The notes below the pieces were generated by a model. The model had not been told where the DNA came from. It made no database searches and worked only from the letters and a program-made list of their open reading frames with translations. A stretch of 63,584 nucleotides of DNA, the filler included, from Candidatus Woesearchaeota archaeon (lineage in GTDB: Archaea > Nanobdellota > Nanobdellia > Woesearchaeales > CAZJJJ01), in the NCBI GenBank assembly GCA_046538795.1. It is 6 parts of 6 records of this genome, joined end to end, with 100 filler letters (N's around TTAATTAATTAA, not from the genome) between each part and the next. Parts side by side here need not be neighbours in the genome. Positions count along the whole stretch, not along the records: positions 1 to 11,360 come from JBKHIF010000046.1; 5 more parts are not named here. One strand, written 5' to 3'. Positions 6,880 to 33,637 of the stretch are shown here, piece by piece. The first letter of the stretch is position 1. Each line of letters starts with the position of its first letter. The position numbers and the translations under genes were made by a program.

Positions 6880-7063
6880 CTCATCTTAAGTCATAAATGC
6901 TCTTTTGATCTGTTCTTCAAAAATACAATTTAAAAAATTCTACAACAGTAAGACATTTAACTTATATTTAAGGCATATAGTTTTAACAAAATGAAAAATT
7001 TTATTAAAAAACTAAACATAAGATTTATATTTGATAATATCATGCAATAATTTGGTGATTTAC

Positions 7064-7555
7064 ATGGATATGAAAGATGCAATGCAGACAGCGCTTGATT
7101 TTGAAAAAAAGGGAAAGGATATTTATGTTGATGCTTCACAAAAGACCAAAAACTCATTCATAAAAAAAACATTTGAATATCTTGCAGAACAAGAAGAAAA
7201 ACACATTAGAGAGATTGAAAATTATTTCAAGAACAAGAAATTCGAAACAAACGGAGATGATCCAGTACATGTTAAGGAATTTTTTACAATGACAACAAAA
7301 GAATTCCAGAAAAAGCTTGATCTGACAGAAGATGACATGCAGGCTCACGAACGTGGATTAGAACTTGAAAATGAAAGCTATAAATTTTATGAACAGCAAA
7401 AAAAACATGCTGAAAAGCAGGAAGTAAAGCAATTTTTCGATTTTCTCATGAAACAAGAGATGGCTCATTACGATCTAATCAAAAAAAGCTATGAATATAT
7501 CAATGATCCTGCAAATTTCCACATAGAAAATGAAACCTGGTTTTTTGAAGGATAA
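7064..7555 (+). CDS. Rubrerythrin/ferritin-like di-iron protein
   Basis: Two repeats of the E...Y...ExxH pattern (ALDFEKKG...EQEEKH; LELENES...QEMAH); GGTGA SD before the ATG at 7064. Confidence 0.88.
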   Translation: MDMKDAMQTALDFEKKGKDIYVDASQKTKNSFIKKTFEYLAEQEEKHIREIENYFKNKKFETNGDDPVHVKEFFTMTTKEFQKKLDLTEDDMQAHERGLELENESYKFYEQQKKHAEKQEVKQFFDFLMKQEMAHYDLIKKSYEYINDPANFHIENETWFFEG

Positions 7556-8164: not shown

Positions 8165-8423
8165 AAGACCAGCAGAAACATTTTCAAAAAAATGGGGATG
8201 CTGGGATTAATTTGCTTTGTGAAGCAAAGGAAATTTGCAGCAAAAATCACAAGATTTTTGATAGCACGTTTGAAGACCAGCAGAAACATTTTCAAAAAAA
8301 TGGGGATGCTGGGATTAATTTGCTTTGTGAAGCAAAGGAAATTTGCAGCAAAAATCACAAGATTTTTGATAGCACGTTCGAAGACCAGCAGAAACATTTT
8401 GAAAAAATGGGGATGCTGGGATT
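8165..8423. repeat. 108-bp tandem repeat (about 2.4 copies) that includes the 3' end of tRNA-Trp
   Basis: Units start AAGACCAGCAGAAACATTTT at 8165, 8273 and 8381; each contains TGGGGATGCTGGGATT, the reverse complement of the last 16 nt of the tRNA. Confidence 0.95.
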
Positions 8424-8535
8424 CGAACCCAGATCCGTTGGTATCTCCTCTGGCTTTGAAGTAAATCATTGCCTGAAAAGCTCATCGCTCCAGGAACTGG
8501 AGCCAACTATTCTAGCCAGGTTATACTACACCCCC
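8408..8535 (-). tRNA. trnW: tRNA-Trp(CCA) with a 54-nt intron at 37/38 (intron 8443-8496)
   Basis: Acceptor GGGGGTG/CATCCCC, anticodon stem GTTGG/CCAAC, loop CT-CCA-G^A, T-arm CTGGG-TTCGAAT-CCCAG, BHB helix CTCC/GGAG with 3-nt bulges. Confidence 0.96.
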
Positions 8536-8665: not shown

Positions 8666-9949
8666 TTAGTAATAAGTCTGTGTCTCTTCGTCCTCGTCTT
8701 CGTCCTCGTCATTCTTTGGTCCTGTAAGCTTGTTAAACACAATTACAAGTCCAAGTATAAGGAGGAACACGATTAAAACAACTGCTCCGATTTCAAGAGT
8801 TCTTCTGAATCCACCTGTTTCAGTTTCTTCTTCCTCTTCAGCCGGCATAACATTTGCCTGAAGAGCAACCTGTTTCATGGTGTTTCCGCTTCTTACGTTC
8901 ACTATAAAGACTTTATCGCCTTCTGCGCCTTCGTTAGGAGTCACATACAGATAAACTGTCTTTGATGAACCTGCTTCAACAACAACAAGGTTTGTTGGGT
9001 TGATCTGGAATGTTGCCCAGTTAGCAGGTGAAACAGTGATTGCGTAAGTCTTTGATTCTGAACCGACGTTGCTTATTGTTACTGGATAACTAAGTGTCTC
9101 GCCAACAGTTCCTGTCTGAGGTTCGCTGTCTGCACTTACAAAGGTTGTTTCTGAAGGCTCGTCATCATCATCTTCAACTGCGTCTTCTGCAAGAACAAGA
9201 ATTTCATATTCTTCAACTTCAGTTTCGTCTCCATCATAATATTCAACTTCAACAACTGCTTTGTATGTTCCTGGTTCTGCATTCTGAGGAATTCTTAGGA
9301 AAAGCTCTTCTGATGATTCTGTGTCATCTTCGCTTCCTTCAATTTCATCAATATAATCTGATGCTGAAACGCCTAGTGCAGGGATTCCTACAGTAACCTT
9401 GACATCTTCCTCGTCTTCTCCATAGTTCCTTACTCTTACTGTTGAAAGAAGAGCTCGTCCTGGAAGAACGCCGTTTTGTGGTGAGAAGATAACGTCTCTT
9501 ATAGCAACATTATGGTCATCATCGTCAACCTGAAGCTTTACATATGCAGCAGGAACTATTCCTTCCGGAGCATATACTTCAATTCTCAGATCATAATATC
9601 TTACATCAACTCTCTGAGGAACTTCAAGGCTTAGCCTTTTCCTGTAGGTTGAACCTTCAACCATGTCAAATGGTCCTTCAACATCAACAAGCGAATCTCT
9701 ATCTCTGTGACCATAGCCTCTTAATGAAGCCTCAATCTCTATGTCATCAACACTTTCATTTGCTTCCAGCTCAATAGTTATATCGATCTTGTCGCCTCTC
9801 TTGACGTTGTATGTTGAACCGTCAAAAACATATGATCCATCTATCTGGATACTAACTACATCAACAGGAACAACATCAGCAGCAACTGATGAAGCCATCA
9901 TAACAACAGCCAACATAAAAACCATCAATAATCCAATTTTATTTCTCAT
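8666..9949 (-). CDS. Cell-surface/S-layer-like protein (signal peptide, Ig-like CARDB/NEW3-type domains, C-terminal TM anchor)
   Basis: N-terminal signal peptide (MRNKIGLLMVFML...VAA), acidic beta-rich repeats (VRVRNYG, IPQNAEPGTY, VTISNVG), C-terminal TM helix and acidic tail. Confidence 0.8.
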   Translation of the reverse strand: MRNKIGLLMVFMLAVVMMASSVAADVVPVDVVSIQIDGSYVFDGSTYNVKRGDKIDITIELEANESVDDIEIEASLRGYGHRDRDSLVDVEGPFDMVEGSTYRKRLSLEVPQRVDVRYYDLRIEVYAPEGIVPAAYVKLQVDDDDHNVAIRDVIFSPQNGVLPGRALLSTVRVRNYGEDEEDVKVTVGIPALGVSASDYIDEIEGSEDDTESSEELFLRIPQNAEPGTYKAVVEVEYYDGDETEVEEYEILVLAEDAVEDDDDEPSETTFVSADSEPQTGTVGETLSYPVTISNVGSESKTYAITVSPANWATFQINPTNLVVVEAGSSKTVYLYVTPNEGAEGDKVFIVNVRSGNTMKQVALQANVMPAEEEEETETGGFRRTLEIGAVVLIVFLLILGLVIVFNKLTGPKNDEDEDEDEETQTYY

Positions 9950-10103
9950 TTGGTTAACCCCCACTTTGATTTTTTATAATTAAGATACCGTTGATAGGTA
10001 AAACACGACACCTTTTCATATGAGTAAAACAACTCTGATATTTAAATATTATGGTCGTTTAGTATATCTGAGTAGTTACACCACAAAACCATTTTTCGGT
10101 GAA

Positions 10104-33500: not shown

Positions 33501-33637
33501 TGTGGGGAAGGGGATTCGAACCCCCGAACCTACTAAAGGACTGGATTCCTCCTAATAGGCGTGATCACAGCGCAATAGTTGCGCTCACCACTCAATTAAC
33601 TTGAGTCCAGCGGATTTGACCGCTTTCCTATCCCCAC
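33501..33637 (-). tRNA. trnL: tRNA-Leu(CAA) with a 53-nt intron at 37/38 (intron 33547-33599)
   Basis: Acceptor GTGGGGA/TCCCCAC, anticodon stem CTGGA/TCCAG, loop CT-CAA-G^A, long variable arm, T-loop TTCGAAT, relaxed BHB (CTCA/GGAG with a TAAT/ATTA extension). Confidence 0.94.

Follow-up and report, generated by a model that had tools for sequence, protein, structure and literature searches.

A putative one-kink-turn box C/D-type guide in a woesearchaeal tRNA-Trp intron, with a probable role in 2'-O-methylation of C34 of its own precursor

The window, that is, the whole stretch of 63,584 nucleotides (nt) analysed here, consists of several contigs, with runs of N between them, of a 1.34 Mb assembly (35% GC) of a Candidatus Woesearchaeota archaeon (GCA_046538795.1). 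On the minus strand, at 8408-8535, it carries a tRNA-Trp(CCA) gene, detected with the Rfam model RF00005 (41.2 bits) and with ARAGORN run with introns. This gene is interrupted at the canonical position 37/38 by an intron of 54 nt (8443-8496), which is the subject of this study. In the samples drawn, the order of the host comprises more than 100 families, and closely similar tRNA-Trp genes are mostly found in records titled Candidatus Woesearchaeota, in line with a woesearchaeal (DPANN) host.

A preliminary description of this DNA had read the intron as a guide followed by box-like motifs around a stem, and re-reading of the sequence agreed with it letter for letter. In 5' to 3' order, the intron holds a guide (CTGGAGC, 8487-8493), one base, a box D' (ATGA, 8482-8485), the stem-loop GCTT-TTC-AGGC (8471-8481), which has 4 base pairs (bp) and a 3-nt TTC loop and would close a kink-turn (K-turn), and then a 3-nt AAT bulge with GA-TT after it, bulge and box C' (ATGATT or ATGATTT) lying together at 8463-8470. 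The remainder comprises a spacer (8453-8462) and the motifs CAGA and GGAG (8445-8452). Such an arrangement of D', stem, bulge and C' is the sequence pattern of a C'/D' K-turn. The guide is the exact complement of tRNA positions 31 to 37 (GCTCCAG, 8497-8503), and its G8490, the fifth base upstream of ATGA, faces C34 (8500) in a Watson-Crick pair, as had been described. This agrees with the N+5 rule, under which the target base faces the fifth guide base upstream of box D or D' (PMC6009581).

The features of an internal C'/D' K-turn or kink-loop (K-loop), namely tandem G.A pairs, flanking pairs, a bulge and a stem, appear to be present as judged from sequence and covariation. The terminal K-turn of box C and box D that characterizes a canonical bipartite small RNA (sRNA) is absent, since no box C lies upstream of the guide and CAGA is not kept as a D box. 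The guide measures 7 nt here and 6 nt in most relatives, compared with the about 8-12 nt usual for archaeal C/D guides (PMC6009581). With sR50-type guides the intron shares its place at 37/38 of tRNA-Trp and its aim at C34; the focal intron lacks their position-39 guide and second box pair. In an Rfam scan only the tRNA passed the threshold, and no curated small nucleolar RNA or sRNA model matched. The Trp intron would act like a box C/D guide yet falls outside the canonical bipartite class. Its layout is rarely produced by chance, as a guide, NNGA, a stem and GA occurred anywhere in only 145 of 200,000 dinucleotide shuffles of the intron. The free intron folds no better than shuffled sequences (z -0.99), which is to be expected of a fold model that leaves out G.A pairs.

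Another contig of the same genome carries a tRNA-Leu(CAA) gene (33501-33637, minus strand; Rfam scan and sequence reading) with a 53-nt intron at 33547-33599. Its module (33562-33595), recognized by sequence and by a covariance model, has its own guide, TTGAGT (33590-33595), a box D' GTGA (33585-33588) and a box C' GTGATCA (33562-33568), and the match in layout between the two introns that was noted previously (53 vs 54 nt) holds. Surveying the intron-bearing tRNAs of the genome added the elongator Met(CAU) intron (G000:C53:6513-6632), which has the same layout with a guide of its own; the layout was not seen in the other introns of the ARAGORN listing, judged by eye. Genome-wide, the covariance model gave exactly three strong matches, namely the Trp, Met and Leu(CAA) introns, all three of which had also been used to train it.

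Three BLAST searches of 61 genomes, supplemented by later searches, yielded distinct module-bearing genes for Trp (72), Leu(CAA) (20) and Met(CAU) (18). The queries themselves carried the module, so these tallies are not frequencies, and no frequencies were taken from the loci parsed as lacking it, which are mostly false parses of non-tRNA sequence. None of the conclusions depends on genomes flagged as unpublished. Trp guides match positions 32-36 of Trp only (71/72) and Leu guides match Leu only (20/20), and within isotypes the guide still follows position 31 (G-C in 70, A-U in 32 and C-G in 4 of 110 introns), which supports the earlier claim that the guide tracks each host anticodon. An alignment of 54 sequences, with 84% of its cells paired, reaches a covariation score of 0.407, compared with 0.137 after shuffling and at most 0.092 with the partners slid, with the reservation that the structure was derived from the same sequences and that much of the guide covariation is between isotypes. 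The pair between C34 and the guide G is invariant (54/54 aligned introns). In alignment A1 the stem is paired in 98.8% of cells with two-sided changes, the TGA of box C' is invariant, and so is the GA of box D', which the parser required. Box D' reads ATGA in 70 of the 110 module introns, and the D1-C6 pair is formed in 81 of them (A-U 57, U-A 14, C-G 7, G-C 2, G-U 1). The combination of ATGA and ATGATT had been taken as a compensatory change in the Trp intron; D1-C6 does covary across the family, but the state found here is that of the majority and is not peculiar to this intron.

These data bear on whether the complementarity could be a neutral relic, produced by the geometry of the splice motif or left behind by a decayed ancestral guide. 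The GGAG strand of the bulge-helix-bulge also complements positions 32-35, so anti-anticodon words are to be expected in such introns, and a guide word without boxes survives in one relative (G077). However, the guide is separate from the splice-motif strand, and boxes, stem and register are kept with compensatory changes in about 100 genomes of several phyla. The covariation largely refutes a relic, an explanation to which we attach hardly any weight.

Across 151 genomes, an even draw of the phylum, the covariance model matched 107 when E was at most 0.05 and 99 when it was below 1e-3, the latter being a cut of our own that drops eight weak genomes, and the positive genomes mostly carry the module two or three times. 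A pattern scan of a species collection matched at least 121 stretches, 80 of them titled. Among the matches listed, true Trp genes with the module also occur in records titled Undinarchaeota, Nanohaloarchaea, Altiarchaeales and Micrarchaeia, and the genome of the Nanohaloarchaea-titled record has one Met intron with the module. The bacterial matches among those listed lie outside tRNAs and were discarded as chance. The first six Leu(UAA) introns examined are all without the module, and one Leu(UAA) intron, in G117, contains it with one mismatch and with A facing U34. G052 has a degenerate Leu intron. Overall, the family of anticodon-programmed guides that had been proposed is supported, with a scope wider than proposed, as it takes in Met(CAU), one Leu(UAA), and Cys and Phe introns directed at position 39.

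The Cys(GCA) and Phe(GAA) introns of some relatives, reached through weak matches of the covariance model, contain the same D'-stem-C' module with the N+5 base facing position 39, and this base follows its target (G, C or A opposite C39, G39 or U39). Out of 30 Cys loci, 28 could be parsed; 11 are intronless and 17 have introns, 13 of which pass a strict test. The guide of these fits the unspliced junction better in 11 of the 13, and the spliced form better in none. Seven Phe introns aim at U39, with exon bases 36-37 completing the guide in two. In the genome studied here, ARAGORN listed a Cys gene without an intron and no gene for Phe. A second guide for position 39 also follows box C' in 23 of the 72 Trp introns, fitting the precursor only in 13 and the spliced junction only in one (L017), with nine not distinguishable; it lies 12-15 nt from C' in 22 of the 23, and its D box is often degenerate. 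These two-guide Trp introns often have a terminal GAAG as well, which may be a box C. By their sequence, the long two-guide introns resemble a bipartite guide that has been split open at the splice junction, of which the focal intron would be the one-module form.

Another order of elements was found in the phylum, which we take to be Thermoproteota, that includes a record titled Candidatus Caldarchaeum. There, 13 of 16 Trp-like genes, picked by eye among the matches listed and with six checked together with their flanks, read guide-39, D', stem, C', guide-34. These Trp genes were missed by BLAST with an intronless Trp gene and were reached by pattern search. As in the introns of the small archaea, guides for positions 39 and 34 go together with an internal D'-stem-C' module, whereas the guide for position 34 stands before D' in the small archaea and after C' in these 13 genes.

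Fibrillarin was searched for in the same 151 genomes. The strong module (E < 1e-3) is present in 97 of the 111 fibrillarin-positive genomes and in 2 of the 40 fibrillarin-negative ones, and cases of loss come from two or more families of the order and from other orders as well. A pattern search of 22 fibrillarin-negative genomes recovered Trp genes from eight; two of these are the exceptions that hold the module, three are intronless, and three have box-free introns, including that of G077 with its bare guide word. Covariance model R1 gave no match in G105, G070 and G049 despite fibrillarin. In the genome studied here, the Nop5 and fibrillarin genes are adjacent and both of full length, and L7Ae is encoded too, as a fragment; a first L7Ae candidate was rejected and identified as L30e. 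Two canonical stand-alone C/D sRNAs are encoded on contigs C77 (minus strand) and C89 (plus strand). Their D guides are identical, and their D' guides, which resemble the guides of Nanoarchaeum equitans sRNA10 and sRNA3, have matches of 10 and 11 nt in the 23S rRNA of a family relative. As a separate observation, the fibrillarin match of G052 (G052:C9:66706-67344) contains one in-frame TAG, and the Trp and Met introns of that genome still hold the module.

A second guide, TACTTCAAAGC before CAGA, had also been proposed, by which the Trp intron would be a two-guide RNA that methylates another RNA in trans. The letters are present, the spacer has a length of 10-11 nt, and CAGA is reported as a common D box among N. 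equitans sRNAs (PMC3491384 supplement 2). Nevertheless, two family orthologs have unrelated spacers with CAGG replacing CAGA, and in the fold model CAGA pairs with the 5' end of the intron. The own 23S rRNA is unassembled and so fell outside the target search, for which the 23S rRNAs of three relatives were used instead; the best match of the spacer to these has 7 Watson-Crick pairs, a value reached by 60 of 100 shuffles, compared with 10-11 nt for the stand-alone sRNA guides of this genome against a relative's 23S. The 11-mer target of the spacer does not occur in the partial own 16S rRNA, nor in tRNA genes save for an 8-nt match in an Arg(CCT) intron, and its single other occurrence in the genome lies outside the annotated tRNAs and 16S. 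The matches in the 23S rRNAs of the three relatives and in the partial own 16S do not exceed chance, and with an unconserved spacer we judge this second guide to be very improbable. The preliminary description was right that no box C precedes the guide. It also suggested that one could arise by circularisation, but neither the family orthologs nor the Leu and Met introns offer a conserved candidate; this is implausible for this intron and plausible only for the longer two-guide introns of some relatives.

The register and the covariation, the N+5 base that follows its target (U34 and position 39), the three strong model matches, whose isotypes all have a box C/D-guided first anticodon base in Pyrococcus, the co-occurrence with fibrillarin, and the Nop5, fibrillarin and stand-alone C/D sRNA genes of this genome favour a guide for 2'-O-methylcytidine at position 34 (Cm34), and we consider it highly probable, from these sequence comparisons, that the intron guides Cm34 by one route or another, in cis or in trans. 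From the observed sequence, conservation, covariation, register and fibrillarin co-occurrence, we infer the following theoretical scheme. The intron would represent the internal half of an archaeal box C/D guide RNA, with guide, box D', stem-loop and box C'. As the known biochemistry of box C/D RNAs leads one to expect, L7Ae would bind the single K-turn and bring in Nop5-fibrillarin. Before splicing, the anticodon-loop stretch 31-36/37 of the precursor would leave the bulge-helix-bulge fold and form a short hairpin with the guide next to it, upon which fibrillarin would 2'-O-methylate C34 by the N+5 rule; refolding and splicing of the RNA would follow. In Leu(CAA) and elongator Met(CAU), the introns would act in the same way on their own C34. 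We assign a probability of roughly 65% to this reading, in which a box C/D guide with a single K-turn acts in cis and 2'-O-methylates C34 of its own precursor.

Action in cis is favoured because the guide has only 6 nt in most introns, is fixed near the splice site, is rarely extended, and forms a hairpin that is predicted to beat the splicing fold. The guide starts at most 6 nt from the splice site in 103 of the 110 introns and reaches position 37 by a Watson-Crick pair in 19 only, while predictions of trans guides usually require at least 9 pairs (PMC6009581). For the focal precursor, the guide hairpin is the predicted minimum-energy fold (-46.3 vs -41.2 kcal/mol), and the modelled guide fold is more stable than the splicing fold in 68/72 Trp, 15/20 Leu and 11/17 Met genes. 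The match of position-39 guides to the unspliced junction likewise argues for action in cis on the precursor. Alternatively, Cm34 would be guided in trans, either by the excised intron, which is probably circular, or by the intron of a different precursor molecule. Trp introns are reported to accumulate as stable circles in Sulfolobus, where the intron has two 7-bp complementary stretches (PMC3326292), and in Thermococcus (PMC9014305), and the Met intron of N. equitans is described as abundant (PMC3491384). Circularisation would also give the long two-guide introns of relatives near-canonical spacers, mostly of 11-13 nt, and the second guide of L017 points to spliced RNA. A guide acting in trans, however, would not be expected to stay at 6 nt, without selection to extend to positions 37-38, beside the 5' splice site in three isotypes, and the orthologs form no second box pair at the circular junction of this intron. 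We therefore regard the trans route as rather unlikely.

The same folds could be read in another way, namely as a folding switch, made up of the K-turn and the anti-anticodon stretch, that depends on L7Ae and sets the timing of splicing or holds it back, with no methyl group transferred. In the models, the pairing of the guide and the splicing helix are mutually exclusive and the guide fold is the more stable one, and mammalian intronic K-loop RNAs are reported to repress their own splicing (bioRxiv 10.64898/2026.08.03.742641). A switch would leave unexplained both the fixed N+5 register on position 34 or 39 in at least six isotypes and the loss of the module with fibrillarin, as in G023, which has L7Ae and neither fibrillarin nor module. 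This makes a pure switch an improbable explanation compared with a methylation guide.

Several points weigh against methylation guided in cis. The guide of 6-7 bp is shorter than the usual 8-12 nt, and the fold model ignores K-turn, tertiary and protein energies; in the Met genes, the modelled pairing probability of C34 with the guide is low (median 0.18). Two assemblies, G067 and G126, hold the full module and are fibrillarin-negative, although their genus has fibrillarin in 7 of 9 genomes, which makes assembly gaps likely. Conversely, the module was not found in the Leu(CAA) intron of G031 or in the short Trp intron of G021, both with fibrillarin present. Kinship among the 151 genomes means far fewer independent events than 151. 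L7Ae is seen in this genome only as a fragment at a contig end, being of full length in 26 of 30 relatives. With respect to the enzyme, an earlier study describes single-motif complexes as active and not site-specific (PMC1635284), and in vitro work on Haloferax favours action in trans (as cited in PMC2584109). On the other hand, halfmer guides with a single motif are reported to methylate site-specifically in vitro (PMC7229835). Cm34 is thought to limit C34 to G-ending codons (PMC7668247), a restriction that fits Trp, Met and Leu(CAA).

The tail of the Leu intron (33553-33560) is complementary over 8 bp to the variable arm of its own tRNA (33528-33535). At least 6 bp to the variable arm are found in 14 of 20 Leu(CAA) introns, with compensatory changes that include the copy in the window, and the best duplex is 6.1 against 4.6 in shuffles (15 introns). 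We read this tail as an auxiliary pairing or anchor; a second N+5 guide was rejected, the register to the next NTGA shifting by 0-2 nt between genomes. A general antisense element was rejected for Trp tails (mean best duplex 4.8 vs 4.5 shuffled, 27 introns) and for Met tails (4.7 vs 4.4, 16 introns). The focal tail AGCCAG has 6 bp to the D-loop, mirrored in two family orthologs, and alone this is not significant (p 0.18). We are evenly divided on whether all these introns represent a portable one-K-turn cassette, occurring in at least six isotypes (Trp, Leu-CAA, Met and Leu-UAA at position 34; Cys, Phe and the second Trp site at position 39), that is re-programmed for each host and brings about self-methylation in cis through a splicing-excluding fold, sometimes with an antisense anchor.

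If true, such a cassette would give many tRNA introns a direct job and replace separate guide genes, and a family lost together with fibrillarin would provide a concrete reason why archaeal tRNA introns persist. It would likewise provide a halfmer enzyme that occurs in nature and is site-specific with a guide of only 6 bp. These introns offer natural substrates for two disputes, namely whether intron guides act in cis or in trans and how specific a single box pair is.

Directly behind the tRNA-Trp gene, at 8165-8412, lie two 108-nt tandem copies (99% identical) and a partial third, each copy ending with the last 16 bases of tRNA-Trp. Of the neighbouring genes, that at 8666-9964 codes for a protein with an Ig-like domain and that at 7031-7555 for a rubrerythrin-like protein; neither has an obvious connection with the intron. 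In the order of the host, including this genome (G000:C30:35104-35288), tRNA-Tyr(GUA) introns are long (57-111 nt; also L121, L125, L135), and several have GATGA-type boxes but lack a 31-36 guide in the N+5 register, so that they may represent another type of intron RNA. UAU-anticodon tRNAs with introns occur in three genomes of the order (L116, L124, L134). The 0.6 Mb genome G023, which lacks fibrillarin, has a Trp(CCA) tRNA and a Trp-like tRNA with UCA anticodon (L133, L461), suggesting UGA as a sense codon. Records titled 'uncultured Methanosarcinales archaeon' (L278, L281, L295, L298, L326, L335, L346) contain a woesearchaeal-type tRNA-Trp, and their titles are probably placeholders.

That an intron can guide methylation of its own wobble base is reportedly known in principle since 2001. 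Our literature search, conducted mostly without subscription papers, found no description of intronic guides in Leu, Cys or Phe or of a one-K-turn form; what appears new is the Leu(CAA) intron guide, the position-39 modules, the co-loss with fibrillarin and the guide order reversed with respect to Thermoproteota. The closest known systems are the Trp-intron guides of Haloferax volcanii and Pyrococcus (sR50), which have the same host, 37/38 intron, N+5 aim at C34 and proteins (PMC7994747, PMC2584109, PMC4090602). According to these descriptions, sR50-type RNAs have two box pairs (C/D and C'/D') and also guide position 39, whereas the focal intron has one K-turn and one guide of 6-7 nt at its 5' end, with neither an upstream box C nor a position-39 guide; this comparison, which covers host, target, proteins, box pairs and guides, relies on review descriptions. 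The Trp-intron guide has been termed a unique example (PMC4090602), a view that a Trp/Leu/Met/Cys/Phe family would widen. The elongator Met intron of N. equitans shares this layout (ATGAGC, one base, CTGA, hairpin, GAT-GA) and is stable; it is called a potential C/D box sRNA with 'no prediction' for its target, and the accessible text notes no Trp/Leu/Met family (PMC3491384). In Pyrococcus, modification of the first anticodon base is reported to be guided by box C/D RNAs in Leu(CAA), Leu(UAA), Met and Trp (PMC7994747). The Pyrococcus sRNAs for Leu(CAA), Leu(UAA) and Met (sR49), like Haloferax sR-tMet, have the same position-34 targets and are separate trans-acting genes. According to PMC2584109, the Trp guide always lies within an intron and the Met guide never does, while here Leu and Met guides lie inside their own targets. 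Lastly, halfmer C/D RNAs (Yang et al. 2020, PMC7229835; Hardin and Batey 2006, PMC1635284) likewise have one box pair and an open-ended guide, and they are described as engineered or as weakly conserved human RNAs of conflicting specificity, whereas the form in the Trp intron is natural and widely conserved.
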